Positions 14,248 through 33,644 of a stretch of 64,000 bases of DNA are shown here, piece after piece; positions within the stretch are counted from its first letter, which is position 1, and every line of letters starts with the position of its first letter. The translations under genes were made by a program, and so were the position numbers. A model generated the notes under the pieces. The model made no database searches. It was not told the origin of the DNA and worked only from the letters and a program-made list of their open reading frames with translations. This stretch comes from a virus (Duplodnaviria; Heunggongvirae; Uroviricota; Caudoviricetes). The stretch lies in IMG/VR virus record IMGVR_UViG_3300035698_027074; one strand, given 5' to 3'.

Positions 14248-14349
14248 CCTCTTTCTTTCTAATTCTCTCTGAGAGAGAATCTATAAATTTAGATATTTCT
14301 TTGTGGAATACAACGACCACAATCAAAAATGTTACAAATCCTAAAAACG

Positions 14350-16677
14350 TCATTTTCCTAACCTCTCCAATATTTTTTTAGCAGTTTCTTCATCTACCCG
14401 TGTATAAAGGTCTGGATGAAGTTCAGTCTTATCATCAAATTCCACTTGATATATTTTAACTTGATTATTAAAAAACAATAGGTGGAATTTATCAAGACCT
14501 ATTCCATTATAAAAGAATGTTTTTACAAATACACTTTCTTTTATTTCACCTGGAATATAAGCTACCATTCCCCTTTCTAAATCTAAATAAAGAACACCGT
14601 CTAAATGTGGCATGTGTGTCATTTCTTCCTCTAAACTATACAATTCAACATCAGGAATTCCCTCACCTTCTGTAACTATTGCCATATAGTTGATGATATA
14701 TTGATTCTGGAATACGGGAATATAACTTTCACCTTTCTTCATGAGTGTAAACTTAAGTCCAGAGAAGTCATAAACTATATTTTCATCCTGTTGACTTGCA
14801 GATTGCATCAACCATGGACACCATACCCATTGTTTAGATTCACCAGCTTCACATTGACCAGGAAGTATAACTCCTATGTCTTCTAAATATACTGGTTCGT
14901 GGGAATACCCACCAAAATAGTTCATCCAGACAAATTTCATAACCAAATCATCTGATGATATGAAAAATACCTTATCAACTGGTTCAAATGCTTCTTCAGG
15001 AATATCTGGGAATAGTTCTCTTGATGTTTCTATTTGTTCTGGTGTCATTGAAGTATATTTTCTTATCAATTCTAATGCCTCTGTCTCATTACTTGTTGAC
15101 ATCATTCTTCCCATATCTTGTATTCTTATATTATGTCCATATGGATAACACCATTGGTCACTACAATGTGCCCCATCTGCGTGGACTTTTAATCCTGTTT
15201 CATGTGCCAATATATGACCTGGGTCCCACCAAGTCATTATCAATGAATTGTTTGTTGCGTATGATTCATTTTTCAAATAATCCAAAGCCCATACCCATTC
15301 ATTCGAAATATCAAATCCTCTCATTTCATGTGATTGGGTTGAATACATTATTGATGGATATGTAGAAACCAACAACAAACCAATTACTATGGAAGAATAT
15401 ACTACCTTCGTTTTTTTAACATATTCTATTATATTTCCTACTACCACTCCAGTTGCGATAGCACTTGGAATAGAAAATAAGAGAGTAAACCTCCAACCCC
15501 AGTTCATCATATAAAAAGATGTAAAATACCATAAACCAATAAATAATAATGATATTGTTATTTTTTCCTTCTTGATAAATTTATATGTGAAAAGAGGGAG
15601 TATTAAAGCTCCTAAAATCATTGGATACCCTATCCTTCTGAAAATAGATGTTAATCCCCCTTTAGAGAACAACTTTCCTATAGGTTGTAATTCAGCTACT
15701 GATATGTTGACCATCATCTTCTTACCAACAAACCCTATACTCTCCATCATTGACTCCCAAATATTGATTGTTGGTGTGAATAGATTGAAAAATGTTACTA
15801 TAACTAGTATAGAAACCATAACAATTATAATCGGAAGTATCTCTTTGAATGGGAATTCTATCTTTTTCTTTGGTTGTGATTCTAACATATTCCTATATTC
15901 CCTCATTGCCCTTTTTCTTTCTTTTTTTGACATGTTATCCGTGTCTGGTTTTTTGATTTCTTTTTTCTTACTTACTAAATTCTGTGCAAAAAGGTAGACA
16001 AAATATGACGGGATTATTCCTAAAAGTAAAATGAATATGTACCAAGAAGCTTGCCAAAAATATGTCCATATTAACATGACAAGTGATGCTAAACCAATTG
16101 ACAAATATGTCTTCCATCCCCATTTGTTTTTAAGATATGATTCCAATGTGTTAAGTGTCACCAACACTACACTTACTATAAAGAAAACTACAATACCATC
16201 AGAATCAATATAACCTGCTGGTGAGACACCAATATACGCAGGTGCAAGTACTACGAAAAAAGTTGTTACAAGACCACCATATTTATTGGTTAATTTTGTT
16301 CCCAATATAAATGAAACTACTGCCGTGACTCCAACTACAACAAGATTTGCGTACATCATTGATTTAAAGAATGTAATCGTTGGTATGAACAATTTCATTA
16401 GATAATGAATTAAAATTAATGTATATTCCCAACCCAACTGATAAGGAAATGGTCTTCCAGGTGGTGAGAAACTTTTGAAATCCCATTCTGGTCTCTTAAG
16501 GTCATTATTAAGTATATCCTCAGCGTGTCTTCCATGCCAATGAGGGTCGTAGTCAAGTAATAATGGTGAATCAAAACTTCCTGACCTAGAATAGACTGCT
16601 AAAAAAATAATTCCACTCAAGGTTAACAAAATAAAAAGAAATTCCACCAATGACTTTAATTCTACTTTTATTTTCAT
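14350..16677 (-). CDS. aglB: Archaeal oligosaccharyltransferase AglB (STT3 family), 775 aa, multi-TM
   Basis: WWDPGH (WWDYG-type catalytic motif) in MTWWDPGHILAHETGL; conserved EL1 acidic motif LLDYDPHWHGRHAEDIL; about 13 N-terminal TM helices followed by a soluble C-terminal domain. Confidence 0.8.
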   Translation of the reverse strand: MKIKVELKSLVEFLFILLTLSGIIFLAVYSRSGSFDSPLLLDYDPHWHGRHAEDILNNDLKRPEWDFKSFSPPGRPFPYQLGWEYTLILIHYLMKLFIPTITFFKSMMYANLVVVGVTAVVSFILGTKLTNKYGGLVTTFFVVLAPAYIGVSPAGYIDSDGIVVFFIVSVVLVTLNTLESYLKNKWGWKTYLSIGLASLVMLIWTYFWQASWYIFILLLGIIPSYFVYLFAQNLVSKKKEIKKPDTDNMSKKERKRAMREYRNMLESQPKKKIEFPFKEILPIIIVMVSILVIVTFFNLFTPTINIWESMMESIGFVGKKMMVNISVAELQPIGKLFSKGGLTSIFRRIGYPMILGALILPLFTYKFIKKEKITISLLFIGLWYFTSFYMMNWGWRFTLLFSIPSAIATGVVVGNIIEYVKKTKVVYSSIVIGLLLVSTYPSIMYSTQSHEMRGFDISNEWVWALDYLKNESYATNNSLIMTWWDPGHILAHETGLKVHADGAHCSDQWCYPYGHNIRIQDMGRMMSTSNETEALELIRKYTSMTPEQIETSRELFPDIPEEAFEPVDKVFFISSDDLVMKFVWMNYFGGYSHEPVYLEDIGVILPGQCEAGESKQWVWCPWLMQSASQQDENIVYDFSGLKFTLMKKGESYIPVFQNQYIINYMAIVTEGEGIPDVELYSLEEEMTHMPHLDGVLYLDLERGMVAYIPGEIKESVFVKTFFYNGIGLDKFHLLFFNNQVKIYQVEFDDKTELHPDLYTRVDEETAKKILERLGK

Positions 16678-17163: not shown

Positions 17164-17190
17164 TAATATTGCATAAACTTATATTTAAAG
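17164..17190 (-). promoter_or_regulatory. Recurrent promoter-associated motif, site 4 (variant)
   Basis: taatattgcataaacttatatttaaag; about 60-80 nt upstream of the 17102 start codon on the minus strand. Confidence 0.35.
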
Positions 17191-18204
17191 TTTACCACCC
17201 CTTATCATATATTTCATAAATTCAAAAGTTCCTCCAACCAAACCAATCATCCATGCTATGTTTCTTATTAAGAACATCTTATGGTAGAAAAGTACCTCGT
17301 TGAAGTTTCTTTTAATTCTCCATATATCAACAATCCACAAATTCCATGTCAGAAGTAAACCTCCACAAGACATTACTACAAACCCGTTTTTACCCGTCAA
17401 AATTCCGATAATCATTGAAATTAGACTGAAACCAAGAGTAAATAGTTGTAGTATCATATTTGGTTTTGAAATATGGTCACCCCCTGACTTATTTTTATGT
17501 TCCCAATATAATATTGGAACTGTTTTTGCATATTTTTTTTGTTGATTAAAAAATCCCTTCCATGTGGGTCTATGATAATGATATATTATTGCATTTGGGT
17601 TATAAGATATTAATCTTTTTTTATTTTCCGTCACCCTATACCCCATATCTGTATCATAAGCAACTGGTAAATTTTCTCTCCATTTTAAATTTTTCATTAT
17701 ATCTGTCCTTATCAATAAATTCATGGTAGCGGCTCTACTTATGAATTTACCGAAATGTTTATACCTATCTTCAAGTTCTCTCCCTATTAATTCTTGAAGT
17801 TTAGATTCAGGAATTTTAGGGTTTATAGCTATCCCAGCTACTGCAACGACTTCTTGCCCTTCCTCTGGTGGTCTCACATCCAAACCTTTGATAAGTTGTT
17901 TTAACCAATCCTTTTCTACTTCAACATCCCCGTCTGTTATTACAGTATATTCCGAATCTATTTCTTCCATTGCTTTGTTGTATACTGCAGGGACAGTTCC
18001 TACCATTTGGACAACTTTAAAATTCTTTAAACTTCCGTATTTTTTTTTCATAAACTCAAACGTTCCATCTGTGGACATATTATCCACTATTATTGCCTTG
18101 AAATTTGGATAATCTACATCTCTTATAGAGTCTAAACATCTTTCTATTGTTCTCATTGAGTCCTTTACACTCATCAGAACAGTTATTTCTGGATATTCCA
18201 TCAT
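17185..18204 (-). CDS. Family 2 glycosyltransferase (GT-A fold) with C-terminal membrane segments (339 aa)
   Basis: EITVLMSVKD...AIIVDNMSTDGT...VITDGDVEV, i.e. the GT2 DxD-type motifs. Confidence 0.65.
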   Translation of the reverse strand: MMEYPEITVLMSVKDSMRTIERCLDSIRDVDYPNFKAIIVDNMSTDGTFEFMKKKYGSLKNFKVVQMVGTVPAVYNKAMEEIDSEYTVITDGDVEVEKDWLKQLIKGLDVRPPEEGQEVVAVAGIAINPKIPESKLQELIGRELEDRYKHFGKFISRAATMNLLIRTDIMKNLKWRENLPVAYDTDMGYRVTENKKRLISYNPNAIIYHYHRPTWKGFFNQQKKYAKTVPILYWEHKNKSGGDHISKPNMILQLFTLGFSLISMIIGILTGKNGFVVMSCGGLLLTWNLWIVDIWRIKRNFNEVLFYHKMFLIRNIAWMIGLVGGTFEFMKYMIRGGKL

Positions 18205-18210
18205 TTCACC

Positions 18211-18669
18211 TCATCTGAAAACAGCACCTATCACACATCTTATATTATCCTTAGAAATTTTGTATGGGTCTGTTCCTGGATTATTAAAACCTTTTGTTAT
18301 ATACCAATCTCCTTCCTCTTCATAAATCATATGTAATGCGTATGGTGTTATCACATAATCACCTAGATTAATAGTAACATTCTTTGCGTCAAGACACACA
18401 ACCCAATCATTACCACCAATCAATGGAACCATTGACCCTGTCTCTGGTACTTCATAAAATGTTCTTATTGGTAAATCAAATGTTACGTTACATGACCTTC
18501 CCCTACATTCTATTGACTCCAAATGGGAAGATACATCATCATATGGAATATTTTCTCTTCTCCCTAAATCTTTCCACATTAAATATGTCCATGAAGCAAG
18601 AAATCCTGTTATAGATAAAAAAATCACGATGTTTCCAATAACTTTAAGTGTTTTAAACCAATCAACCAC
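18211..18669 (-). CDS. Signal peptidase I, Sec11/archaeal type (S26B), 152 aa
   Basis: N-terminal TM; box B ETGSMVPLI (catalytic Ser), box C GDYVI, His-containing YALHMIY, box E TKGFNNPGTDP. Confidence 0.55.
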   Translation of the reverse strand: MVDWFKTLKVIGNIVIFLSITGFLASWTYLMWKDLGRRENIPYDDVSSHLESIECRGRSCNVTFDLPIRTFYEVPETGSMVPLIGGNDWVVCLDAKNVTINLGDYVITPYALHMIYEEEGDWYITKGFNNPGTDPYKISKDNIRCVIGAVFR

Positions 18670-20116
18670 CGAATAACCTCCTTGTAGTTTTTATGAGTTC
18701 AGACAATTCTTTCAAACTCCTTATTTTTGATATTCTCATCCATAGATATTTTGGTCTCAAATAATATGATTTATAACACCATTTCACCCATTTTTCAAGT
18801 TCTTTATGTGACATATCAGGAAAATCAACTATAGATTCTTTATATGTGTCAACGGGCTCAAAATCATGTGATTTTGTGGCAAACCAATTGTTTTTTTGGA
18901 TTATTTTATAAAACTCTGTCTGTGGGTGTGGAATGACAACAGCAAAACTAACCCAATCAATCTCCAACATTTTAAGGACTTCCATATTCCATTTTATGGT
19001 TTCTTCAGTTTCAAGTGGGCTTGCACCAAGAAGTATATTAACTTTTGGTTCTATCCCAATTCTTTTCAGATTTAAAACTGCCGTGAATATATCCCCAACT
19101 TTTGTATTCTTCTTGGTGTAGTTTAGTATTTCTTGAGTAAAACTTTCAATTCCTATATCAACCCATTTAAATCCTGCACGTTTCAACCATTCACATGTTT
19201 CTATATCAGTCAATGTGTCTGCACGTAACAAACATCCCATTTCCAAATCCAATGGTTCAAGTAGTTTACATATCTCTATTGTTCTCTCTTTTCCGTTTAC
19301 AAAATTATCATCAATGAATGCTATTGAATTATAACCTTCTTCCTTTAACATTTTCACTTCTTCATATATGTTTTGTGGACTTCTTAATGACATCTGTGGT
19401 TTACACCCAAAATGTTTTTTATGTTCTATTTCCCTTGAGAATGTAAAGGATGATGGTATACAAAAAATACATTGTCCATAACAATTCCTACTCGCCATAA
19501 CTACAGTACTTGGTTTTTTTCTCAATTTAAAATTATAATATTTTCCTTTGTATTTATTTATTAGATGTCTTGATGGGAATGGTAACCTGTCTATATCAAA
19601 ATCTAATTTTCTTGGTGGATTACTTTTTGGATAATCTTTACCCATGTATGTTATCCCCATTATAGTTTTCAATTCTTTGAAGTTGTTACCCATTAATTCA
19701 ACTATCGTATCTTCTGGTTCACCCCTTACAACAAACGTATCTCTATCTGTTACAAAATCACTTGGTCTTCCAGTAGGTTCTGGTCCTAGAAATATTATCT
19801 TTACATTTTCTTTGATTTCCCTGATTTTATCTCTCCAGTATTTATCTAATTTTTCTGACAAGAAAACAGTATAGAAAATATAAACATCAGAGTTGTCTTC
19901 TTTTATAAATTCAATAAAATCTTTTGATTTTCTATCCGTGACTATAAAATCTTCAATAACAACTTCATGCCCCTCTTTTTCTAACATAGCAGCAGGATAG
20001 AGTATGAAAACTGGTTCTGAAAAATATAACCCGAAGTTGCAGCCGTACAAACGCTCGGGAGCTCTCCCATTATTTATTTCATCTATTGCTGGTGGTATTA
20101 AAAATGTTACTTTCAT
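18662..20116 (-). CDS. Cobalamin-binding (class B) radical SAM enzyme, 484 aa
   Basis: N-terminal B12-binding-like Rossmann segment (MKVTFLIPPAID...); radical SAM CxxxCxxC in SRNCYGQCIFCIPSS; C-terminal HKFY..RP..Y motif shared with the five paralogs. Confidence 0.7.
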   Translation of the reverse strand: MKVTFLIPPAIDEINNGRAPERLYGCNFGLYFSEPVFILYPAAMLEKEGHEVVIEDFIVTDRKSKDFIEFIKEDNSDVYIFYTVFLSEKLDKYWRDKIREIKENVKIIFLGPEPTGRPSDFVTDRDTFVVRGEPEDTIVELMGNNFKELKTIMGITYMGKDYPKSNPPRKLDFDIDRLPFPSRHLINKYKGKYYNFKLRKKPSTVVMASRNCYGQCIFCIPSSFTFSREIEHKKHFGCKPQMSLRSPQNIYEEVKMLKEEGYNSIAFIDDNFVNGKERTIEICKLLEPLDLEMGCLLRADTLTDIETCEWLKRAGFKWVDIGIESFTQEILNYTKKNTKVGDIFTAVLNLKRIGIEPKVNILLGASPLETEETIKWNMEVLKMLEIDWVSFAVVIPHPQTEFYKIIQKNNWFATKSHDFEPVDTYKESIVDFPDMSHKELEKWVKWCYKSYYLRPKYLWMRISKIRSLKELSELIKTTRRLFGG

Positions 20117-20400
20117 CTCAATCCCTCCGAATCATTAATGAAAAATTTCTTCAATCCTTTTTTTCCTAGATAAATTAAAAATCCTACAAAAAATACTAGA
20201 AATGCTAGTAAACCAAATATTAACCTAGAAGTCCTAATTCTCAATACAAATTGGGGAAGTGGAAGGAAAATCCAATTTGGCATAATTACCACCATGAAAA
20301 TATACGCACCCAAGAACATCAATAAAATACCAATGAATTTCTTGACTTCAAATTTATTCATTTCAACCCCTCCACAATTTCTTTTGCACTCAACATACAT
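20113..20400 (-). CDS. Small membrane protein (95 aa)
   Basis: Three hydrophobic helices. Confidence 0.4.
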   Translation of the reverse strand: MYVECKRNCGGVEMNKFEVKKFIGILLMFLGAYIFMVVIMPNWIFLPLPQFVLRIRTSRLIFGLLAFLVFFVGFLIYLGKKGLKKFFINDSEGLR

Positions 20401-21641
20401 TTGTCTATGTTGATATATTCAAAATAACCAAACCTTCCAGCCAATATCAACCCCTTTCTTTGATAATAACTTCTTATCTTTTCAATGTTTTTGTAATAAA
20501 AATTATCTGGAACAATGTAGGCAAATTTATTCTTTTTTAATTTTGTAAACATTATATCCTTTTCTTTGATTATTCCATTCTTGACCAAAATATTTACTGC
20601 TCTCTTCTCAACATTTTTTGGTTTCTTGTCTCTGAATGTTATTTCAGTAGTTATCATTCCCCTTCCTTTTGGAACATTATGAGGACTGTAATTGGCAGGA
20701 AAACTTGCTCTTGTTATGAAATCACCAAAATTAATCCAAGATACCCTTTTCATTGTAGGTTTCTTTAGAGCAATTAAAATTGTATATAGTGAATTCACCT
20801 TTAATTTCCCTATCTTTTCTTCTATGTCTTTACTTGTACCAATTACCGATGGTAAAAGAGGTAATGGTATTGTTGAAATCAGTTTATCAAATTTATAATA
20901 GTCTTTGTCTGTCTTAACTACCCACTTATTTCCTTTTTTTCTTATTTCAGTTACTTTTTCATTAAATATATATTCTCCAAAATCACAGACTTCAGAAAAT
21001 AATCCATCTGCAATTGTCTGACTTCCACCTTCCTTTGGATAATAAAATGTCGCTTGTGCCTTAAGACCAGTCACTTCCATGTCCAACGTAGATTTAATCA
21101 TTTCGTCTATTGTTGGTTGAGGTATTCTCTCTACTAATTTTACACTCAATTCCTTTGGGTCAATATTCCACCAAGTTCTATTGACTGGAATAAGATATTT
21201 ATCTGATAATGATTTACCAAAATACTGATAGAACCACTCCACAACGTTTTTTGGTTCTCTAAATTGGCCCTTCATCATTTTAGCTTCTATGAAATCCCTT
21301 AAGAATTCAAATCTATCCTCCTTATTCAATTTTCCTATTCCACTTTCAAATGGATATTTAATTATTTTTCCCTTATAAAAATTCTTTGCATACCTTGTCC
21401 TTTTGTAAAGATTCTCTTTCCCCATAACTTTGACAAAAATATCAAGGATGTCCTTATATTTAGACCAGAGTAAATGTTCACCACCTGTGTTGAATGTGAA
21501 TCCTTCTACAAAATCAGTGTTCATCAGTTCACCACCAGGTTTGTCTCTTTTTTCAATTACAGTAAATTCATGTTTGGTATCTTTCATAAAATAAGCCAAA
21601 CCTAAACCAGTTATTCCTGCTCCTATTATTCCTATTTTCAT
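20358..21641 (-). CDS. FAD-dependent oxidoreductase, UDP-galactopyranose mutase-like (427 aa)
   Basis: N-terminal GxGxxG (MKIGIIGAGITGLGLAY, EKRDKPGG). C-terminal GLILAGRFGYFEYINIDKCM resembles Glf GGRLAEYKYYDMHQV. Internal YLIPVNRTWWNIDPKEL resembles Glf YTEKQWG..ELP. Confidence 0.5.
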   Translation of the reverse strand: MKIGIIGAGITGLGLAYFMKDTKHEFTVIEKRDKPGGELMNTDFVEGFTFNTGGEHLLWSKYKDILDIFVKVMGKENLYKRTRYAKNFYKGKIIKYPFESGIGKLNKEDRFEFLRDFIEAKMMKGQFREPKNVVEWFYQYFGKSLSDKYLIPVNRTWWNIDPKELSVKLVERIPQPTIDEMIKSTLDMEVTGLKAQATFYYPKEGGSQTIADGLFSEVCDFGEYIFNEKVTEIRKKGNKWVVKTDKDYYKFDKLISTIPLPLLPSVIGTSKDIEEKIGKLKVNSLYTILIALKKPTMKRVSWINFGDFITRASFPANYSPHNVPKGRGMITTEITFRDKKPKNVEKRAVNILVKNGIIKEKDIMFTKLKKNKFAYIVPDNFYYKNIEKIRSYYQRKGLILAGRFGYFEYINIDKCMLSAKEIVEGLK

Positions 21642-21999
21642 CTTCCCACCTCAATCAATTATTTTCACAATTACAACAATCACCAATATAATAAGTATAA
21701 TCGGTGAGAGTATCAATATAATAGATGACAATACCATAAGGATTATCAACACAAATATTCCTATAACTAGGAAATATGGTATTGATAATAACAATAATAA
21801 TCCAAATATTATATTTTCCTTATCCATTTTTCATCTCCTTCAACATTTTTAGTATTTCATCCAATCTTTGGAGAATTATTCCATTCCCCCCATACAAACG
21901 GCTGAAATATGGTTCTTGTAAGACACCACAATGTGGGCAATATATTGCCCCATCACTTATTTTTGACTTACATCTATGACATTTCATTATCTCACTCTC

Positions 22000-22485
22000 C
22001 TACATTACATAATATTTTTCGCCTACTTTGAGACAGATTGTATTTCCATATCGAGACATGTCCACTTTATTTGGTGGTTTTACAAACTGAATCTTTTCAG
22101 CTTTCATAATTTCTTCCAATTCTTCTAATCCAAAATTGTAGAAGAGAGCACTAAAAACAATTTTTTTAAGTCTTTCTTCGACAAAATCAGTATGTTTTAA
22201 AATCTTATTTAGTTTTTCAGTTATTTGGTCTATCTTCTTTCCTGGTAAAGGTTTGTCCTTCATTTTAATATCAAAAATCAACTTTCTTCCAGTATCAGTA
22301 ATCTTTTCTATTCTTCCTTGTTCATCTCCAACTATTAGGTTCGTTACATTTTGTGTTTCAAGGAATGGAAAATAATTATATGGGTTTTCTGCAGTTCCCA
22401 TAAAAATATACTTACCAGCACGAATAGTCCCTGGTTTAACAAAAATTACATCCTCTGTCCTTGACTTGATTTTATTTTCTGGCAT
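22000..22485 (-). CDS. Hypothetical protein (161 aa)
   Basis: ORF track. Confidence 0.4.
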   Translation of the reverse strand: MPENKIKSRTEDVIFVKPGTIRAGKYIFMGTAENPYNYFPFLETQNVTNLIVGDEQGRIEKITDTGRKLIFDIKMKDKPLPGKKIDQITEKLNKILKHTDFVEERLKKIVFSALFYNFGLEELEEIMKAEKIQFVKPPNKVDMSRYGNTICLKVGEKYYVM

Positions 22486-22715
22486 TAAAATTCAACTATT
22501 GGTTTTTTTTCATTTGATTTTTTTATTTTGAAACATGATGTCCCATAATCTGGTTTTATTTCCTTGATTTCTTTATCTAGTTCTGTTTTCTTTTCTTCTA
22601 AGGCATCAGTAACATCTTCCTTTAGTCCTTCTAAAATGTTTTTTGTTATCTCACTTTCTATTCCTTTATTATTTAGGTATTTCTTTAATCCCAACTCTAT
22701 TTCTTTCATTCCCAT
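22485..22715 (-). CDS. Hypothetical small protein (76 aa)
   Basis: ORF track. Confidence 0.35.
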   Translation of the reverse strand: MGMKEIELGLKKYLNNKGIESEITKNILEGLKEDVTDALEEKKTELDKEIKEIKPDYGTSCFKIKKSNEKKPIVEF

Positions 22716-23097
22716 CCATTCTCTCCTCCAAATTTTTTAGGTCTTTTGAGGTTATATCCCCCATCATAATAGATTTTTCAATTGATTCAACAAAACTTGT
22801 AACAAGACCATATTTTGAATTATTGAAATGTTTATTTAAGATTAGATTGACCAAATCATATCTTTTTTTATCCTCTTTCTTTAAATTAACTCTTTTGAAG
22901 GTCAATTTTAACCTTGTTTTTTTATCTAAATATTCAAAATCTTCTAGTATATATTTTTCATAAATATTAACGTCTTCCATAACTGGTGACCAGTCACATA
23001 CCTCGACAGTAAATCCTTTTTTCAATTTAATGAATAATGACTTACTTGGGAATTCTCTCCCTTCATGAAATCTACTAAATACTTCCATTATTATCAC
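22669..23097 (-). CDS. Hypothetical protein (142 aa)
   Basis: ORF track. Confidence 0.35.
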   Translation of the reverse strand: MIIMEVFSRFHEGREFPSKSLFIKLKKGFTVEVCDWSPVMEDVNIYEKYILEDFEYLDKKTRLKLTFKRVNLKKEDKKRYDLVNLILNKHFNNSKYGLVTSFVESIEKSIMMGDITSKDLKNLEERMDGNERNRVGIKEIPK

Positions 23098-23218
23098 TTC
23101 AGAGATGAAATTATACTAGCACATTTTGCCATTTTATGAAATTTCATTTTACATGTTTTTTTGTAGGAACAATGTTCACAATATTTGTTCCTAAACTCTT
23201 TAATTCTATCTATCATTA

Positions 23219-24634
23219 TTAAACCCCTATTAATTGTTTTAACACCTTTGTCATCATACTTGGGTTCTTAAGGAAATAAGAACCTAAAGATATTGGATGA
23301 GAAATATTACTTCTTACTTTTGATATTGTACATGCACCTAACACCTTCTTATAAATCTCACTGAACTTCTCTTTATCCATTTTACTTAGAATAACATTAT
23401 CACCATGGAAGAACTGGTTTATTTTATTCCAGTCCATATTATCAGAAACAAGACCTTGTTTTTTTGCATATTCCCATAACTCTGTTCCAGGTAATGGTGT
23501 TGTTATATAAGCTGTACAACTATCCATATCGTTCCCTTTAATGAATTTTAATGTATCATTCATTTCTTCTTCAGTTTCTTCTGGATTTCCCAACATAAAA
23601 CCAGAACCCATTGCAAATCCATGTTTTTTACATTGTTTTACGGCATTCCTGTTATCTTCAACTGTTACAGTTCCACGTTTTAAATATTTTAAAACTCTCT
23701 CATTTCCACTTTCCAGTCCAAAACCAATATAATAAACATTCATTTTTTTAAGGAGTTCACATACTTTATCTGACATCATATTTGCTCTTCCCTGTATTCC
23801 AAATTCAACTTTTTCATGTATTCCTTCTTCCCTAACTAAATCAACTATTTTTTTGAGTCTTTCAATGTTAACTGCGAATATATCATCAAAAATGTTGATA
23901 TATTTGACATTATATTTTTCTATCAAAAACTTCATTACATCAACAGAATACTCTGGTGAATTATATCTAAGGACCTTCCAGAAATGTGAACTTCCACAAA
24001 ATACACAATTATAAGGACATCCTCTAGAAGTCATCATAGACATTCCTTTACCGAATTTTCTTGGAAAGTGGTCCTGTTTTCTTAGATAATATTTTAGATT
24101 AAAGGAATCATAATCAGGAACACCAACTTTATCCAATGGTTTGATAAGTTCCCTTCTTCCAGTATTGATTCTTTCCTTATTTCTATGAAAAACTAGACCT
24201 TTTATTTTCTTTAATTTCTTGTTATCCCAACCCATTTTTGAGCTGTCTTTTTCAAATAAATTCAATAATTCAACTAAAGTTTCTTCACCCTCACCCAAAA
24301 TACCAACATCAAAACAATCCTGTAACATATGAGGTAATGCCGTCACATGATGACCACCAATCATTATTGGGATTCCATCATCCTCTTGTATTTTCTCTGC
24401 CAAGAGTATCGTCTCATGAAATTCCAGTGTTGATGATGAAATTCCTATAACATCTGGTTTGTCTTGTTTCAATCTTTGTTGTATATTATCACAAGCAGCA
24501 TCAATAATAGAAGTCTTCCAATCTGTATGTTGTTTAATAAAGGACGATAAAAAACCTACACCCAATGGTGGATAATGAAGACTAAGTGGAGTAGGTTTAT
24601 ACATTGCTAAAAAACTTATTTTGATAATTCCCAC
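23219..24634 (-). CDS. Cobalamin-binding (class B) radical SAM enzyme, 471 aa
   Basis: TSRGCPYNCVFCGSS (CxxxCxxC); N-terminal B12-domain-like region with GISSSTLEF...GGHHVT. Confidence 0.7.
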   Translation of the reverse strand: MGIIKISFLAMYKPTPLSLHYPPLGVGFLSSFIKQHTDWKTSIIDAACDNIQQRLKQDKPDVIGISSSTLEFHETILLAEKIQEDDGIPIMIGGHHVTALPHMLQDCFDVGILGEGEETLVELLNLFEKDSSKMGWDNKKLKKIKGLVFHRNKERINTGRRELIKPLDKVGVPDYDSFNLKYYLRKQDHFPRKFGKGMSMMTSRGCPYNCVFCGSSHFWKVLRYNSPEYSVDVMKFLIEKYNVKYINIFDDIFAVNIERLKKIVDLVREEGIHEKVEFGIQGRANMMSDKVCELLKKMNVYYIGFGLESGNERVLKYLKRGTVTVEDNRNAVKQCKKHGFAMGSGFMLGNPEETEEEMNDTLKFIKGNDMDSCTAYITTPLPGTELWEYAKKQGLVSDNMDWNKINQFFHGDNVILSKMDKEKFSEIYKKVLGACTISKVRSNISHPISLGSYFLKNPSMMTKVLKQLIGV

Positions 24635-24975
24635 CTCACTATTATAAAATCCATCGGTAGTTTGTACATTTTGTCAAACCATTTACACATCTCTTCTGAA
24701 TTTTCAAATCCATCCTTTCTTGCTATCTCATCGGGATGTTCATCTGTACCGTAAAATATTGGATAAACACAAACGTCATTCTTTTCAAATTTCATCTTTA
24801 TTACGTCTGTTATTGTTCCTTCCCCTAACTTTTCACAATTCTTTGTCCTCATTCCTTTGTATAAATATGCTGTCTGACCAACCTTTGGCATGTTCTTCCT
24901 GATTGTTCTTATTGTCTGTGTTTTTTCTCCTGACTTCACTTTGTCTAAAAAGACACTGAAACTGAATGATGGCAT
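24616..24975 (-). CDS. ASCH (PUA-like) domain protein, 119 aa
   Basis: N-terminal FLDKVKSGEKTQTIRT is typical of the ASCH fold. Confidence 0.4.
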   Translation of the reverse strand: MPSFSFSVFLDKVKSGEKTQTIRTIRKNMPKVGQTAYLYKGMRTKNCEKLGEGTITDVIKMKFEKNDVCVYPIFYGTDEHPDEIARKDGFENSEEMCKWFDKMYKLPMDFIIVRWELSK

Positions 24976-25268
24976 TATTTTTTCCCTCGTTTTTCCTCAA
25001 GATATGTTATTTTTATGATTGCTGTCTTTTTCGGAAATATGTGAAGATATTTGAAACCACCTTCTTCCCATATTTCTTTTGCAATATAATAATTATTCTT
25101 GTTCTCATGTACCAACCAACCAATAATACTACATTTAGATGGTTCTAGGTCTTTAATATCTTCTACTTCTAAAATAGAACTATCCCAACTCTGGACATCT
25201 ATCCAATCTATCTTTACCATTTTTGGTAATTTCTCTTTCATGTATGTATCATCTCTTTTTCTAACCAC
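24975..25268 (-). CDS. Hypothetical protein (97 aa)
   Basis: ORF track. Confidence 0.35.
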   Translation of the reverse strand: MVRKRDDTYMKEKLPKMVKIDWIDVQSWDSSILEVEDIKDLEPSKCSIIGWLVHENKNNYYIAKEIWEEGGFKYLHIFPKKTAIIKITYLEEKRGKK

Positions 25269-26305
25269 TTGTCAAATTTATCAACAACATTCTTCCAGTT
25301 GAATTCACGTGCTGTTTCAAGTCCATTTTTACTTAATTTCTTCCTTAATTCGTCATCTCCTAAGACCTTCAAGATTGCATCTGCCATTATTTTTGGTTTT
25401 TGTGGTTCAATAACAAGACTATTCTTTCCGTCTACTGCGTAGTCCTCTGTTCCATATTTAGTTGTGAGTATTGGAGTCCCACATGCCATTGCTTCTAGTG
25501 GTGGGAGAGGGAATGACTCATACCATGACGGGCAAACAACCAAATCAGCAGAATTATAAAGTTTGACTAATTCTTCATCAGATGGGAATTTAACGAATTT
25601 ATGTGGTATTTTCAGGTCTTTTGGACCCCTTAGACCATAAAAAGTAAGTTCAATTTTATCAAACATCTTCTTGTTTTCTTTCTTTATGATTTCCATTGAT
25701 TTTATTAAATCTGGTAATCCTTTCCATTCTATATAATCCTTAGCCAATGATATTATCCTGAATTTTCCCTCTTCTTTTGGTTCATATGTATTATATTCTT
25801 CTTCTTTCATTGGTCTGAATAGTTTGGTATCAATACCATTTGGTATGTACTCACTTTCTATCCCCTCCTCTTTAAATAACCTCTTTTTAGCCCATGTTGA
25901 ATTTATTGTACCTTTAAAACCTAAATGATAACTCTTCTTTGCAAAATATTTCATCACAAAATTATCAAAAAATAATGGTTCATAATGTTGTATCCTGTAA
26001 ACCTTAAAACCAGAATGTAATTTTACTGGGAATGTGGTGAAACACCAGGTAGCTACTTGAACTTCTGCTTTTGGTATACCCATAGCAAGTTTCTTAAGAC
26101 CGAACAACATATGTGGTAATGATGGATATTTGAATGGTGTGTTCAATAAATTTATCTCGGCTCTCAGAGGAAACCAAGATACATCACCACTAGCAGCAGT
26201 GACACTCACATTATGACCCTTGTCAACAAGTCCATTAGCTAATTCAAAAATACATCGGTTTCCACCTGTACATTTACTGTTAAAAATTGTAAAGTTTATT
26301 CTCAT
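25238..26305 (-). CDS. Family 4 glycosyltransferase (GT-B fold), 355 aa
   Basis: EAMACGTPILTTKYGTEDYAVDGKNSLVIE (the GT4 E-x7-E motif). Confidence 0.7.
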   Translation of the reverse strand: MRINFTIFNSKCTGGNRCIFELANGLVDKGHNVSVTAASGDVSWFPLRAEINLLNTPFKYPSLPHMLFGLKKLAMGIPKAEVQVATWCFTTFPVKLHSGFKVYRIQHYEPLFFDNFVMKYFAKKSYHLGFKGTINSTWAKKRLFKEEGIESEYIPNGIDTKLFRPMKEEEYNTYEPKEEGKFRIISLAKDYIEWKGLPDLIKSMEIIKKENKKMFDKIELTFYGLRGPKDLKIPHKFVKFPSDEELVKLYNSADLVVCPSWYESFPLPPLEAMACGTPILTTKYGTEDYAVDGKNSLVIEPQKPKIMADAILKVLGDDELRKKLSKNGLETAREFNWKNVVDKFDKWLEKEMIHT

Positions 26306-26661
26306 CTTGATAACACCCCAAAAAATACACTGAAATCATTAAATGCGTCCATAAACGCAACCAAAAGGAACATCGTAGTGATTATATCTAACATGATAGG
26401 TTCAACGACAATCTTTCCTCTTCTAACCATTACATATATACTTAAAATGAAAGTTGGTAATATTATATAAGTTATGAACTCTGCCATTCCACCCAAAGTA
26501 TATGATAACCTTGCTAGAGGATTTATCTCAATAATTGACGATACTTCCTGTGTAGTCCCACATAAATCCGATGTTTTATAAATGATGACTCTTGAAAACA
26601 TATATGCGAATAACAGGAAAAATATTCCCATAATTACATACCAATCATTTCTAATCATCAT
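26302..26661 (-). CDS. Small polytopic membrane protein (119 aa)
   Basis: Four hydrophobic helices; overlaps both neighbours by 4 nt. Confidence 0.4.
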   Translation of the reverse strand: MMIRNDWYVIMGIFFLLFAYMFSRVIIYKTSDLCGTTQEVSSIIEINPLARLSYTLGGMAEFITYIILPTFILSIYVMVRRGKIVVEPIMLDIITTMFLLVAFMDAFNDFSVFFGVLSR

Positions 26662-26777
26662 AATTCAACTCCCTTAACCTATAGATGATATTATCACTGT
26701 TCATGAATATTGGTTCGTATAAATTTACGTCATTCCCTATAACTTCTACAAACATAGGAGTCATAGCACCGATTAAA

Positions 26778-28202
26778 TTAGATTCTGGAAGTACATACTT
26801 CTCTGCCATTATTCCCCTCACACATGAATGTAAGAACATTATATCCTATCAATGTATCAAATATAAACCTTGAATCTGTTGTTGTCATTAGTTCAGGAAA
26901 TTCCTCCATTGCCCATACATTTTCCTGCCCACTAAAATATTTCACACTTCCACCATATGCTGTAAAAACACCGACAGTCTCATTACCAGCGTATTTCTTA
27001 ATTTCTGAAAGTCCTTCAATATAATTTTGTGGCCAACGATGTATCATGGTAGTGTTCCTAGCTTGTACTATTCCACTGTAAATACACCATCCACAAATTA
27101 TAAAAATTATGAAAATAAACCATCTGTCCTCATCAAAGAGTTTTCCCAAAAATAGTCCACCAATTATTGCCAATTGTGGGAATATGATTGACAAATATCT
27201 ACTTTCTATTACCATCAATTTTGTGAAATAAAGGAAAAAGAATAGTGTGGAAAACGTGACCAAGAAAATCATTGGTAAAACCATTTTTTCGTCTGTTGAT
27301 TGTATATAATAAATAATACCAAAAATACAAAGAACGGTAGTTATTTGACCAAATGTTGCTAATATATCCAATTTAGGACTAATCAGTTTGAATGCTGATA
27401 ACATCCATTCTGGATGTTGTGTTGGAGATTTCCCTTTAAAGAAAATATCCAATGGTTGGAAATACGGAAAACCATATGCAACAAGATTTCTTATGATTAT
27501 AGGACTAAAAACAAGAGCTGCTACTATACAACTCATAATAGAAAATTTCAGGAATTTATAATCATTATTCTTTAATACCTTCCATAATGCATAAATCATT
27601 AAAAATATTGGGAAAACAAATCCACTTGTCTTGATATACATTGAAAGACCCATAAAAATACCTGTTAATATAGAAGATTTCATTGAAGTCATTTTTAAAA
27701 TAGAATATGTAATCAGTATTGAAAAGAATGCTATTGGTATATCAACATAAGCTAGTAATGAATAATGTGTAAAGGTTGGAATAACCATCAATAATGAAAC
27801 AGATGCCACAGAAGCTATAGGGAATATCTCAATGTCACCCCACATACTCTTTTTTGACAGTTCTTTTGAAACTATATAAACCATAACCAGTGTTCCTGTC
27901 GCAAACAATGCAGATACCATTTTACAGACTGAGAGTGAAACACCAAAAATCTTGAAGAAAATAGCGTATATTATTGGTATACCCAGTGAATATGATAATG
28001 GTCTTGGGTTTATGGTTCTAAAATATGTTGGTAACTTTCCAGTGGATATTAATTCACCAATTTCCATATAGAGGATTTCATCTTCACCCAAATAATCAGT
28101 TTTAGTAGAATAGTAGACTAAAATCCCACCTAATAGTATTAAGATGATTATAGGTAGGTGTTTTAATTGTTTTAAACTTATATCCACTTCCATTAGTATC
28201 AA
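26778..28202 (-). CDS. GT-C fold membrane glycosyltransferase, ArnT/PMT-like (GT39/83 family), 474 aa
   Basis: First extracytoplasmic loop GEDEILYMEIGELISTGKLPTYFRTINPRPLSY (DE catalytic motif plus PL.Y) followed by about 10 more TM helices. Confidence 0.6.
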   Translation of the reverse strand: MILMEVDISLKQLKHLPIIILILLGGILVYYSTKTDYLGEDEILYMEIGELISTGKLPTYFRTINPRPLSYSLGIPIIYAIFFKIFGVSLSVCKMVSALFATGTLVMVYIVSKELSKKSMWGDIEIFPIASVASVSLLMVIPTFTHYSLLAYVDIPIAFFSILITYSILKMTSMKSSILTGIFMGLSMYIKTSGFVFPIFLMIYALWKVLKNNDYKFLKFSIMSCIVAALVFSPIIIRNLVAYGFPYFQPLDIFFKGKSPTQHPEWMLSAFKLISPKLDILATFGQITTVLCIFGIIYYIQSTDEKMVLPMIFLVTFSTLFFFLYFTKLMVIESRYLSIIFPQLAIIGGLFLGKLFDEDRWFIFIIFIICGWCIYSGIVQARNTTMIHRWPQNYIEGLSEIKKYAGNETVGVFTAYGGSVKYFSGQENVWAMEEFPELMTTTDSRFIFDTLIGYNVLTFMCEGNNGREVCTSRI

Positions 28203-28378
28203 CTTTTCGATTCTTTTCTTTTTTTAACAATTACATCAATAAAATCCCCTTTCTTGATAAATTCCTTCATATCATTTGGGATTTTTATGTAAAGCATCGT
28301 CCCTGTACTCTTGATTTTTGTGAAAAATTTATATTCAGAACCCATTAGTTTACACCTTCTCATATTTATTTGTATCTT

Positions 28379-29449
28379 TCAGTATTTAAAATTACCTCGA
28401 CTTTGATAATCTTTATCATTCCTAAGACCTTTTACAAATTCGTCAATCTTTTCTATAACCTCTGGTGTTGGATGGTGTGGGATTAATACCTCATAATAAT
28501 TTGTTTTGAGTTCTGAAAAGTTTTTTCCCATCATTTCTTTAAAATCATCTATAACATTATTGTAAGATAATGAATTAATAGCTTCCAACATGTTATCCAA
28601 TTCAAAATTATTTATCAGTTTTAACTTTCGTACTGCTGTTTTTTTTGGTATTTTCCTTATGTGTATTTCATCCCTGTTACATTTGGTCAAGATGAAAATT
28701 CCCCCTATATCCGTTGGTTTGTCTATTATATATTTGGTTATAGTCTCCACATTGACATCTATTGGTATTTGTGCCCATTTCATACTTAAGTTGTAAATCA
28801 AACTCTTTATTTCAAGTTCTAACCTTTGTTTATTGTTCAATCTCTTTTTTAAAAATGGACATGATAAAAAGTTGTGGTTCATTAATCTTATGGTAGTTGC
28901 ATAATCATGTATCTTGTTCCCTCTCAATAAATTATACTCATCACCCAAGAAACCATAACCTTTATTTGATAGATAAAGAGCTGTTGATGTCTTACCTGTA
29001 TGAGCACATGCCGAGAAAAGATATGTCTTCTCTTTGATTGGGTCAAACAGTCCAGAAGAATGAATGAAAACAAATCCCTTTTTTGCCATAAGATATATTA
29101 TGACTGGTTCTACAACCATTCTCCATATAAACCTTTCAGAAAATAGTTTGTTACCACACGTAACTATTCTAACTGGCTTTTCACCAAAATTAACTATTGA
29201 TTTCCATTTGACAAACTTATAGGATTCTTCAAAGTAAACTGATTTTCTTTTTACATAATATTTCCCATCTAAAAGCATTTCCCAATCTTTTGGTTTTTCA
29301 AATTTAGTAAATATAACTTCCAAATCAACATCAGACGGTTCTGCAGTATATCTGTAATACATCTCACTAATAAATTTCATTGGAACACTTTTACTGTCAC
29401 CAATCAACTTAAACTTAAACCCATGTAGGTTAAAATAAACTGTTTTCAT
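28379..29449 (-). CDS. HprK-related (HPr kinase C-terminal domain-like) P-loop kinase, 356 aa
   Basis: GFVFIHSSGL...YLFSACAHTGKTSTALYLSNKGYGFLGDEYNLL matches the HprK core G.L.HG....G.GVLI.G.SG.GKSE.AL.L...G..L.ADD. Confidence 0.55.
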   Translation of the reverse strand: MKTVYFNLHGFKFKLIGDSKSVPMKFISEMYYRYTAEPSDVDLEVIFTKFEKPKDWEMLLDGKYYVKRKSVYFEESYKFVKWKSIVNFGEKPVRIVTCGNKLFSERFIWRMVVEPVIIYLMAKKGFVFIHSSGLFDPIKEKTYLFSACAHTGKTSTALYLSNKGYGFLGDEYNLLRGNKIHDYATTIRLMNHNFLSCPFLKKRLNNKQRLELEIKSLIYNLSMKWAQIPIDVNVETITKYIIDKPTDIGGIFILTKCNRDEIHIRKIPKKTAVRKLKLINNFELDNMLEAINSLSYNNVIDDFKEMMGKNFSELKTNYYEVLIPHHPTPEVIEKIDEFVKGLRNDKDYQSRGNFKY

Positions 29450-29455
29450 TATTCA

Positions 29456-29695
29456 TCAACACACAACAACTCTCATACAAATTTTACATTGAAATCCTTC
29501 AACTGCTCCATAACCAGCGTAACCAGCCATTGCCTTTAATTCCATCTTTTTTCCACAACAAGTTGGTGGCATATATGTATCTTTAATTGGAGGAACACGA
29601 TTTCTATGTTCTTCTTGTTCTTCTTCTTGCCTTTTTAATTCCTGTTTTCTTTCTTTTTTCATTTCTTCTTTTGTTTTAATTCTTAAACCAAACAT
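29456..29695 (-). CDS. Small peptide (79 aa) with a charged helical N-terminus and a Cys/Gly/Ala/Tyr-rich C-terminus; possible RiPP-like precursor or metal-binding peptide
   Basis: MFGLRIKTKEEMKKERKQELKRQEEEQEEH then RVPPIKDTYMPPTCCGKKMELKAMAGYAGYGAVEGFQCKICMRVVVC. It lies immediately upstream of the HprK-like kinase. Confidence 0.4.
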   Translation of the reverse strand: MFGLRIKTKEEMKKERKQELKRQEEEQEEHRNRVPPIKDTYMPPTCCGKKMELKAMAGYAGYGAVEGFQCKICMRVVVC

Positions 29696-29697
29696 TG

Positions 29698-30054
29698 TTA
29701 ATCCTCTCTTAATTTCTTTTTTACTTCTTTCATCTGTCCTATAGCATATTCTCTATTTTCAAGTTCCATTAAAACAGATAATCTTTGAATAACCCAGTTT
29801 TGAACATTATGTGATTTCAACATCTCCTTGACTTTTTTTAGTAAATATTCTTTCCCTTTTGGTTGCATTATCCCAAAAAGAAAATTCAAGTTTCCTATAA
29901 TTTCTTCCATTTCATTGAATGTTAATTCCTGTCTTTCTTTCTCTTCATTTTTAAATGTCTTTAAAACATTTGGATAATTTGTTTTAACCCATTCTGGATT
30001 AAGAACTTCTTGTTTTGTTCCTTTTGGAATATAAAATTTTTCAATCTTTCCCAT
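29698..30054 (-). CDS. Hypothetical protein (118 aa)
   Basis: ORF track. Confidence 0.4.
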   Translation of the reverse strand: MGKIEKFYIPKGTKQEVLNPEWVKTNYPNVLKTFKNEEKERQELTFNEMEEIIGNLNFLFGIMQPKGKEYLLKKVKEMLKSHNVQNWVIQRLSVLMELENREYAIGQMKEVKKKLRED

Positions 30055-30144: not shown

Positions 30145-30495
30145 TTATTCTGGTAAATGATAATTTGGTAAATTACATCTATTACCTGAAACTATCATGA
30201 TTTCTCCAGATTTACTCTCTTTGTATGTTGGTTTTTCTGTTGTTCCTGATTCAACAAGTACAACTTGCCCCCAACTGTCTTCTTTGTAGATTGCCCCATT
30301 TCTTCCTCGAAATTCACCCTTTTTCAATTCTCTTGGTTCATTTTTAACTTCAAGAAATTCACTTTCTTGTTTTGGTTGGGTTTTGAATTCCTCTGGAACT
30401 TTTCTAGTGTTTTCTCCAAAGACTTCTCCCATTTTTCTGTCAATCATTTCAAAGACTGTTTCTCCTTCATAGTCTCCTATTCCTATTTTTCCCAT
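30145..30495 (-). CDS. Hypothetical protein (116 aa)
   Basis: ORF track. Confidence 0.4.
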   Translation of the reverse strand: MGKIGIGDYEGETVFEMIDRKMGEVFGENTRKVPEEFKTQPKQESEFLEVKNEPRELKKGEFRGRNGAIYKEDSWGQVVLVESGTTEKPTYKESKSGEIMIVSGNRCNLPNYHLPE

Positions 30496-30507: not shown

Positions 30508-31452
30508 TTATTTAGATTTTTTAGATTTTGGTACCTGTAACCCTGATGTTGCTGACATTGTCTCTCTTAATGCTTCAAGTGGTACTGCGAAAACTATTGT
30601 ATTACTTTGGTCTTGACTTATATCTGAAAGTGTCGAAAGTCTTCTTAATTCCATTGCTCCTCTTGTTTTCAAAAGTTCGTCTGCTGCTAACTTCAAGTTC
30701 TTTGCTGCTTCTAGTTCACCTGTTGATTTAATTACTACAGCTCTCTTTTCTCTTTCTGCCTCTGCTTGTCGAGCCATGATTCTTTCCATGTCTCCTTCTA
30801 GTTTTATGTTCTGTAACTCAACTGATTGTATGTCAATTCCCCATGCTTCAACATGTTTGTCTACTTGTTTCTTGATTTCTTTTGCAATTTCTTCCCTCTT
30901 TGCTAGTAAACCATCAAGTTCATACTGACCTGATATATTTTTAAGTGTTACTTGTGATTTGTTCATCACTGCGTGTCTGTAATCTTCTATGTTCAATATA
31001 CTCTTTTTTGTGTTAACCACTTTCATATAGACAACACCATCTATGTTAACTGAAACATTATCTTTTGTCAAAACTCTCTGTGGTTCAATGTCCATAACCC
31101 TAATTCTTGTATCTCTCCAAATTACTGATTCTATGAAAGGTATTTTGAAATAAATACCTGCACCAACTTTCCTGTTGAATTTTCCTAATTTTAGAATTAT
31201 AGCTTCTTCCCATTGTTTATTGACACCAAAAGAAGAAAATAATACACCTAACCCTAAAATAACAGCTATACCTGTTCCGATAAGTCCACCTAATTGTATT
31301 CCACCAAAAATAAGACTATACCCGAAATATACCATTGCTATTATTGTTGGTATTAAAACAAACCAAAGAAGTGTTCCTCCTGATTTTTCTGGTTCACTTG
31401 TCTTCACTATCTCTTCTTCATATTCTTCATCTTCGTGTTCTTCATCTGTCAT
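30508..31452 (-). CDS. SPFH/Band 7 family protein, stomatin-like, 314 aa
   Basis: N-terminal TM region then IILKLGKFNRKVGAGIYFKIPFIESV...VNIDGVVYMKVVN and coiled-coil AEREKRA. Confidence 0.7.
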   Translation of the reverse strand: MTDEEHEDEEYEEEIVKTSEPEKSGGTLLWFVLIPTIIAMVYFGYSLIFGGIQLGGLIGTGIAVILGLGVLFSSFGVNKQWEEAIILKLGKFNRKVGAGIYFKIPFIESVIWRDTRIRVMDIEPQRVLTKDNVSVNIDGVVYMKVVNTKKSILNIEDYRHAVMNKSQVTLKNISGQYELDGLLAKREEIAKEIKKQVDKHVEAWGIDIQSVELQNIKLEGDMERIMARQAEAEREKRAVVIKSTGELEAAKNLKLAADELLKTRGAMELRRLSTLSDISQDQSNTIVFAVPLEALRETMSATSGLQVPKSKKSK

Positions 31453-33447: not shown

Positions 33448-33644
33448 TGGTCTACACCCACCACTTTAATAATTACTTCTACATCATCACCTTCACCAAA
33501 TGAATAATCACCATCAAACATTCTTGAAACAGATTGGGATATATTAATGATAAAGGATTTATTTCCCAAAATTCTGAGAAATCTTCCATGTTCATTGGTT
33601 TTCATTTTAGATACTTTCCCTATTATTTTCAGTTCGTTTTTCAT
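33444..33644 (-). CDS. Small hypothetical protein (66 aa)
   Basis: ORF track; wedged between a radical SAM gene and the GT-C-like gene, overlapping both by 4 nt. Confidence 0.35.
   Translation of the reverse strand: MKNELKIIGKVSKMKTNEHGRFLRILGNKSFIINISQSVSRMFDGDYSFGEGDDVEVIIKVVGVDQ

Follow-up and report, generated by a model that had tools for sequence, protein, structure and literature searches.

The 64,000-nucleotide (nt) stretch analysed here (IMG/VR record IMGVR_UViG_3300035698_027074, referred to below as the window) encodes on its minus strand a 356-amino-acid (aa) protein which, as judged by its sequence, is a P-loop phosphotransferase of the PEPCK/HprK superfamily (PEPCK, phosphoenolpyruvate carboxykinase; HprK, HPr kinase) with intact catalytic residues. 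The gene directly upstream encodes a 79-aa peptide (pep79), and the first-pass annotation had proposed that the two belong to a module for a ribosomally synthesised and post-translationally modified peptide (RiPP), giving as the alternative action of the kinase on a sugar or lipid intermediate, with the peptide as a small metal-binding protein. Members of the kinase family were found among glycan-biosynthesis genes in 14 of 14 distinct related arrangements and never beside the 79-aa peptide. Hence, the kinase is probably a phosphotransferase of a glycan pathway and not a peptide kinase, and it is the alternative role of the kinase that fits the conserved gene context. The family, which is large and unannotated, is a conserved component of archaeal-type envelope-glycan clusters.

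The kinase gene and the four genes upstream of it are as follows.

28379..29449, minus strand: 356-aa kinase of the PEPCK/HprK superfamily, uncharacterised family
29456..29695, minus strand: pep79, orphan protein of 79 aa, charged in its N-terminal half, with Cys as residues 46, 47, 69, 72 and 79
29698..30054, minus strand: p118, 118-aa protein of a lineage-specific block, no family match in Pfam, NCBIfam or PHROGs/PADLOC
30145..30495, minus strand: p116, 116-aa protein of the same block, no family match in Pfam, NCBIfam or PHROGs/PADLOC
30508..31452, minus strand: SPFH/Band-7 membrane protein (Pfam), first gene of the four-gene block

Both open reading frames (ORFs) of the proposed module are present as first described, and the three strings quoted from the kinase (GFVFIHSSGL, SACAHTGKTSTALYL and GFLGDEYNLL) occur in its translation. 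Some details required correction. The TGA stop of the peptide gene and the ATG of the kinase gene are separated by 6 nt and not 4, the TAA stop of the p118 gene and the ATG of the peptide gene by 2 nt and not 6, and two residues (RN) had been dropped from the peptide, which correctly reads ...EEH-RN-RVPP....

The window has a GC content of 31%, and proteins identified in it with Pfam include PCNA, an STT3/AglB oligosaccharyltransferase, an S-layer protein and a LAGLIDADG protein. Thus, it is a piece of an AT-rich archaeal genome, and the archaeon is probably a member of DPANN related to Aenigmatarchaeota.

Family and fold of the 356-aa protein

The 356-aa protein has no meaningful match in Pfam, and a phmmer search of the sequences in the Protein Data Bank (PDB) gave no match. 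An exhaustive phmmer search of 1.84 billion representative sequences revealed 403 relatives at E<=1e-3, the best of which is 39% identical and most of which are about 350 aa long; a word-index homolog search recovered just one or two relatives, even with a profile. No source name other than 'hypothetical protein' (NCBI, for the Aenigmatarchaeota member) was found in the family.

The core residues of the kinase are H130, the Walker A residues G152, K153 and T154, and D170, with K78 and W82 as family-specific residues. In an alignment of 61 members, K153 is invariant and K78, W82, G125, H130, G152, T154, D170 and P324 are nearly so. The profile of these 61 sequences matches ATP-PEPCK at 2e-4 and HprK at 5e-4 over the His/GxGKT/GDD core. 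Among the individual members, weak matches were obtained to the models of the HprK-related kinases A and B (TIGR04352, 56 members; TIGR04355, 40), ScmC (8), FomB (6) and PF01293 (4), and sub-threshold matches to PF07475 (19) and TIGR00679 (hpr-ser; 17). The best of these reach 2e-11 for the A/B models and 3e-10 for FomB. Given these matches of the profile and of the members to PEPCK, PF07475, TIGR04352, TIGR04355, ScmC and FomB, the earlier assignment of an HPr-kinase C-terminal core is correct at the level of the superfamily; it does not hold for the window protein taken alone, which matches no HprK model.

An AlphaFold model of the protein was obtained with pLDDT 92 and pTM 0.90 (a single-sequence run gave pLDDT 36 and was not usable). 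The whole-length fold match of the model is PEPCK, and the structural match to HprK is limited to the P-loop domain. The protein has the two-domain PEPCK fold with a kinase-1a P-loop and the conserved His and Asp. ATP-PEPCK itself (PDB 1ii2, 1aq2 and 2pc9) shares these features, but it is about 510-540 aa long, shows 10-12% identity to the window kinase and belongs to central carbon metabolism, whereas the context of the window kinase is glycan biosynthesis; the latter also lacks a match to PF01293 or TIGR00224. HprK of the phosphotransferase system (PTS; PF07475, TIGR00679; PDB 1jb1, 1knx and 3tqf) has a different N-terminal domain, and the window kinase, whose host is an archaeon, does not match it at E<=0.1. 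No HPr/PTS domain was detected among the ORFs scanned, which below 100 aa were those located between 20 and 38 kb.

The nearest named families for the relatives of the kinase are the HprK-related kinases A/B, ScmC (TIGR04249, PF27840; the latter is on record for the relative P0052) and the lasso-peptide kinases, and the paired kinase paralogs found in the family (see below) recall the A/B pairing. However, the search against the A/B models, which had been suggested as a check of the RiPP proposal, gave no match of the window kinase to TIGR04352 or TIGR04355 at E<=0.1. Unlike the A/B, ScmC and lasso systems, the window locus has no PqqD or RiPP recognition element (RRE), no SPASM radical-SAM enzyme (SAM, S-adenosylmethionine) and no precursor with a C-terminal Ser. 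A PqqD-like partner is part of the A/B cassette in the TIGRFAM description; no match to PqqD was found in the neighbouring ORFs at E<=0.1, a threshold that divergent RREs may escape in searches with hidden Markov models (HMMs). A lasso cyclase (C) or a leader protease/RRE (B) was likewise not found among the ORFs scanned at 14-43 kb, and a transglutaminase-core protein (46389-47354) lies 17 kb away, unlinked to the kinase locus.

The sole curated model that the window kinase touches is that of the fosfomycin-monophosphate kinase FomB, a small-molecule kinase (NF000361; E 0.004, 16.2 bits, cutoff 400), which is also its only match in NCBIfam. The FomB pathway, too, uses a class-B radical-SAM enzyme, Fom3. 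No gene for PEP mutase or another phosphonate gene was seen among the annotated ORFs. By the features compared, the 356-aa protein does not belong to PTS HprK, the HprK-related kinases A/B, the lasso kinases, FomB or PEPCK proper; a compact, PEPCK-like kinase of two domains is the more apt description.

Gene neighbourhoods of the kinase family

The recurrent partners of the family are glycosyltransferases of families GT4 and GT2, HpnJ-like B12-radical-SAM enzymes, a sugar epimerase or aminotransferase, flippases and large membrane proteins. An initial scan of metagenomes with another family alignment gave no loci; further loci were obtained from a metagenome scan with a distant subfamily and from exact look-ups. 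The arrangements include the following.

L003, L004, L007 and L008: B12-radical-SAM enzyme, GT4, kinase; in L003 additionally an O-carbamoyltransferase
L004 in full: GT2, GT2, radical-SAM enzyme, GT4, kinase, kinase paralog, GT4, GT4, GT4, 619-aa protein, GT4
L006: GT4 directly upstream of the kinase
L009: GT4 and GT2 genes downstream of the kinase
L018: radical-SAM enzyme, kinase, GT4, DUF2206, methyltransferase, Wzx-type flippase
L016: ScmC-like protein, DegT aminotransferase, methyltransferase, radical-SAM enzyme, NAD-epimerase, GT4, kinase; further genes for a GT-C-like membrane protein, three GT2 enzymes and a 467-aa protein
L015: GT2, GT2, flippase, fused double kinase
L001: PHP, ATP-grasp, kinase, dTMP-kinase-like protein, DUF354, GT2
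L014, 1216-3498: P0150, one polypeptide of 760 aa in which GT4 is N-terminal and the kinase domain C-terminal

P0150 is a Rosetta-stone GT4-kinase fusion, in which GT4 occupies about residues 22-369 and the kinase residues 423-696; its gene is flanked by a GT2 gene and a gene for an LPG_synthase_TM membrane protein.

Two loci are syntenic with the window cluster: L002, a locus from a Candidatus Aenigmatarchaeota metagenome-assembled genome (MAG), and L013, which encodes the closest kinase homolog, P0003. Both carry the same cluster of radical-SAM, methyltransferase, membrane-protein, kinase and PMT_2-like genes as the window. Compared with the window proteins, the radical-SAM enzymes are 49-72% identical, the methyltransferases 45-54%, the membrane protein 44-54%, the PMT_2-like protein 38-48% and the kinase 34-38%. 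In L002 and L013, the counterpart of the 428-aa membrane protein of the window is encoded directly adjacent to the kinase; in L016, a homologue of it is encoded after the kinase.

A tandem pair of kinase genes is present in six loci (L003, L004, L005, L006, L007 and L009), with the second paralog following the first in L004, L006 and L007. In these pairs, the second copy has GGTFKT in place of GxGKT; the two copies in L004 (4338-5366 and 5373-6431) are 34% identical. In P0126, a 729-aa protein, two kinase domains are fused. The tandem paralogs with a degenerate Walker A motif are consistent with a protein that is not a kinase in the usual sense; it might instead be an ATPase, act as a pyrophosphate (PPi)-dependent enzyme or phosphorylase, or serve the glycosyltransferase as a structural partner. 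Non-kinase chemistry is within the range of the superfamily, as HprK/P also works as a phosphorylase and some PEPCKs depend on PPi. However, the window protein retains the GKT, His and Asp residues, which are invariant or nearly invariant in the family and typical of active phosphotransferases of this fold, and such a role is considered unlikely for it.

We infer what the kinase does, which kind of acceptor it uses and how the steps follow one another. The kinase would catalyse ATP-dependent phosphoryl transfer by means of K153 and T154 of the Walker A motif, H130 and D170, with a carbohydrate or a lipid-linked glycan intermediate made by the partner GT4 as the acceptor. Further remodelling of the product would fall to HpnJ/Cds-like B12-radical-SAM enzymes and methyltransferases, and GT-C-type membrane transferases and AglB would then handle it at the envelope. 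For two radical-SAM enzymes, HpnJ and calditol synthase (Cds) of archaea, remodelling of a sugar head group by contraction of the sugar ring on a lipid head group has been proposed or shown by genetics (PMC13459092). The HpnI/HpnK/HpnJ and Cds pathways resemble the window cluster in having HpnJ-type radical-SAM enzymes alongside glycosyltransferases, but they include no kinase, whereas the window cluster has six radical-SAM paralogs and no hopanoid genes.

A protein acceptor within the same glycan pathway was also considered. In this case, the kinase would phosphorylate Ser/Thr of an S-layer or other envelope glycoprotein, or of the partner glycosyltransferase, either for regulation or to provide phospho-Ser for addition of a sugar, as in the phosphoglycosylated lasso peptide pseudomycoidin. 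The HprK-type enzymes that have been characterised phosphorylate a Ser of HPr or of a peptide, and the sugars of pseudomycoidin are then attached to that phosphate (PMC8498205). The presence of an S-layer gene and AglB in the window, and the tight coupling of the kinase to GT4, or fusion with it, agree with such a role. However, PEPCK, which the fold matches over its whole length, is a small-molecule kinase whose N-domain binds the substrate, the small-molecule kinase FomB is among the weak matches, and the loci contain no conserved candidate gene for a protein substrate. Thus, a protein kinase of this sort seems rather unlikely, though not negligibly so.

To our knowledge, the PEPCK/HprK fold has so far been known only for PEPCK, for HPr or peptide Ser kinases and for FomB. 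Searches of the literature for HprK-like kinases in glycan clusters of archaea or DPANN gave no relevant result, and a glycan-cluster branch of the superfamily with tandem paralogs and a GT4 fusion had no match in the literature searched. As a tentative proposal, the PEPCK-fold kinases may represent an undescribed phosphorylation step in the synthesis of archaeal (DPANN-type) envelope glycans or glycolipids together with HpnJ/Cds-like B12-radical-SAM enzymes; the members would often comprise a catalytic paralog and one with a degenerate Walker A motif, and in one case a fusion to GT4.

The family is widespread, as indicated by its 403 cluster representatives, and occurs consistently in glycan clusters rich in B12-radical-SAM enzymes. 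Such clusters are found in small-genome archaea with almost unknown surface chemistry, and the kinase-GT4 pair with its natural fusion offers a testable handle on an unexplored envelope-glycan pathway. An HprK-like kinase beside radical-SAM genes should not be read as a marker of a RiPP.

The 79-aa peptide and the SPFH-led block

The ORF for pep79 has a codon usage score of 0.39 bits/codon, as compared with 0.25-0.45 for 20 bona fide genes of the window and -0.16 to 0.19 for its other five frames. A GAGAGGA sequence is located 6 nt upstream of the ATG, and GGTG-like motifs occupy the same position at neighbouring genes. From the gene-like codon usage and the upstream GAGAGGA, it is probably a real, translated gene. 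The Cys pattern of the peptide is CC-x21-CxxC-x6-C; it ends in ...RVVVC and contains no Ser.

No relative of the peptide was found. A search of an index of 5.8 billion proteins returned only the peptide itself, by a word-index method with limited sensitivity for short divergent sequences. There was no relative in viral contigs, PHROGs or PADLOC, no match in Pfam or NCBIfam, and no relative in the PDB, where one chance-level match (E 0.04) was seen. By exact look-up, the peptide was found on three short contigs from other samples; these are 100% identical to the window and so carry no signal of population variation. It is absent from 16 of 16 related loci as judged by tblastn, and no free ORF of 30-130 aa is present within 2.5 kb of the kinase in L001-L009. 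That p118 and pep79 are a single frameshifted gene is conceivable and unsupported; three independent assemblies agree on the sequence. The pep79 frame is open for just 19 codons upstream of its ATG.

The gene orders in the three syntenic clusters are as follows, with p54 denoting a 54-aa protein.

Window: membrane protein, methyltransferase, [SPFH, p116, p118, pep79], kinase, p54, PMT-like
L013: membrane protein, kinase, methyltransferase, p54, PMT-like
L002: methyltransferase, membrane protein, kinase, PMT-like

The genes for SPFH, p116, p118 and pep79 are absent from both L002 and L013; hence the SPFH-led four-gene block is a lineage-specific addition. In both loci, the kinase ATG lies 2-5 nt past the stop of the membrane-protein gene, which leaves no room for a peptide gene. 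No compositional anomaly pointing to a recent transfer was detected in the block, and it was not recognisable as a defence or phage module with PHROGs or PADLOC.

These data bear on the RiPP proposal, according to which pep79 is a precursor with a charged leader and a Cys/Gly/Ala-rich core that is phosphorylated by the kinase and methylated by class-B radical-SAM enzymes. The proposal was based on the adjacency of the two genes on the same strand and on the leader-plus-core look of the peptide. It is further favoured by the weak matches of kinase relatives to the HprK-related kinase A/B and ScmC models, which derive from peptide-modification cassettes, and by secondary matches of some radical-SAM genes to models of RiPP C-methyltransferases (E 1e-25 to 1e-51, below cutoffs). 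However, pep79 is an orphan that neither of the syntenic clusters nor any other related locus contains, and the conserved partners of the kinase family are glycosyltransferases, to one of which (GT4) a member is fused. The search for an RRE or a peptidase nearby, which had been suggested, revealed neither, nor were PqqD or ABC exporter domains present in any ORF scanned, and Pfam scans showed no SPASM domain in the six radical-SAM genes of the cluster. The characterised lasso-peptide HprK homologs phosphorylate a C-terminal Ser (PMC8498205), whereas pep79 has no Ser and ends in Cys. The best matches of the radical-SAM enzymes are to HpnJ and not to RiPP methylases. In general, a RiPP cassette is recognised by a precursor family that co-occurs with maturases, and no such co-occurrence was seen for pep79. 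A RiPP module at this site is thus very unlikely. It had been stated that homology of the peptide to a zinc-ribbon family, or a PTS HprK with an HPr gene, would refute the proposal; neither was found, and it is the synteny that refutes it. A RiPP of an archaeon whose core is both phosphorylated and C-methylated would have been a notable find; the evidence argues against it.

Several points weigh against the assignment of the kinase to a glycan acceptor. The acceptor cannot be read from the sequence. The HprK-related kinases A/B, ScmC, the lasso-peptide kinases and HprK act on peptides or proteins or are located in peptide-modification cassettes, and, as these are the nearest named families, a protein acceptor is possible. 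The related loci are for the most part metagenomic contigs without a taxonomic assignment. The peptide and kinase genes of the window are tightly packed on the same strand with the 6-nt spacer and hence are probably co-transcribed. The word-index search may miss short, divergent homologs of the peptide, and divergent RRE domains can escape the Pfam and NCBIfam HMMs, with p116 and p118 being unassigned.

The peptide is most likely a lineage-specific small Cys-containing protein of the SPFH block and would not be a substrate of the kinase. Its Cys pattern is compatible with metal binding, as far as can be told from the pattern alone. A small zinc-binding (zinc-ribbon-like) protein that works with SPFH, p116 and p118 and has no connection to the glycan cluster would agree with this pattern, with the location of the gene in the SPFH-led block, which L002 and L013 lack, and with the gene-typical codon usage. 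However, no homology to a zinc-ribbon family or a solved structure was detected, and there is just one canonical CxxC knuckle in addition to CC and the terminal Cys. Zinc binding of this kind is therefore regarded as possible but doubtful.

Another SPFH/Band-7 gene is located at 44995-45888 on the plus strand, 13 kb from that of the block.

The glycan cluster and other genes of the window

Almost every gene between about 14 and 43 kb of the window is on the minus strand. Apart from the kinase and the SPFH-led block, the glycan cluster and the gene adjoining it comprise the following.

14350..16677, minus strand: STT3/AglB-type oligosaccharyltransferase (Pfam), adjoins the glycan cluster
17185-18204, minus strand: GT2 glycosyltransferase, part of the conserved cluster
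18662-20116, minus strand: B12-radical-SAM enzyme, part of the conserved cluster
20358-21641, minus strand: FAD oxidoreductase, part of the conserved cluster
23219-24634, minus strand: B12-radical-SAM enzyme, part of the conserved cluster
25238-26305, minus strand: GT4 glycosyltransferase, part of the conserved cluster
26651..28202, minus strand: PMT_2-like (GT-C type) membrane glycosyltransferase (Pfam), split into two ORFs
28199..28363, minus strand: p54, 54-aa protein between the kinase and the GT-C-like gene, kept at the equivalent place in L013
31515..32174, minus strand: SAM-dependent methyltransferase, conserved in L002 and L013
32161..33447, minus strand: 428-aa polytopic membrane protein, distantly similar to the PMT_2-like protein
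33444-33644, minus strand: 66-aa small ORF inside the cluster
33641-35065, minus strand: HpnJ-like radical-SAM gene, match to Radical_SAM only
35065-35697, minus strand: methyltransferase among the radical-SAM genes
35702-37141, minus strand: HpnJ-like radical-SAM gene, B12-binding and Radical_SAM
37138-38757, minus strand: HpnJ-like radical-SAM gene, B12-binding and Radical_SAM
38758-40194, minus strand: HpnJ-like radical-SAM gene, B12-binding and Radical_SAM

The cluster includes six paralogous radical-SAM genes (18662-40194, minus strand), five of which give a match to the B12-binding domain. HpnJ, the hopanoid cyclitol-ether enzyme, is the best match for five of the six (E 1e-53 to 1e-100); for the gene at 23219-24634, BchE is the best match and HpnJ the third. 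All of these matches are under the curated cutoffs, that of HpnJ being 577 bits. All six genes are kept one-to-one in the Aenigmatarchaeota MAG. This richness in radical-SAM genes is unusual for a glycan cluster of a small-genome archaeon.

The PMT_2-like gene consists of a 474-aa ORF (26778-28202, minus strand) and a 62-aa ORF (26651-26839, minus strand), which overlap by ~60 nt. Its counterpart in L002 and L013 is a single reading frame, which points to a frameshift, to loss of function as a pseudogene or to a misassembly in the window. No family match was obtained for the 54-aa or the 66-aa ORF, which could be small regulators; the former weakly resembles part of a helix-turn-helix (HTH) protein at 51246-52178.

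Non-conserved small ORFs are scattered through the part of the conserved cluster at 17185..26305. Runs of small unassigned ORFs at 21651-23216 and 24616-25268 (minus strand) are not present in L002; they include an ASCH-domain protein (24616-24975) and an ORF of 97 aa that weakly matches a PHROG. Flanking the radical-SAM cluster are free-standing homing-endonuclease-like genes at 40689-41708 and 43289-43918 (both minus strand), which encode a LAGLIDADG protein and a GIY-YIG protein that also has a MarR-like HTH. In L016, a radical-SAM gene (14317-16147) contains an intein with a LAGLIDADG domain. The window also carries three tRNA genes on the minus strand, for His-GTG (1786-1859), Gln-TTG (7108-7180) and Ala-TGC (8377-8451).

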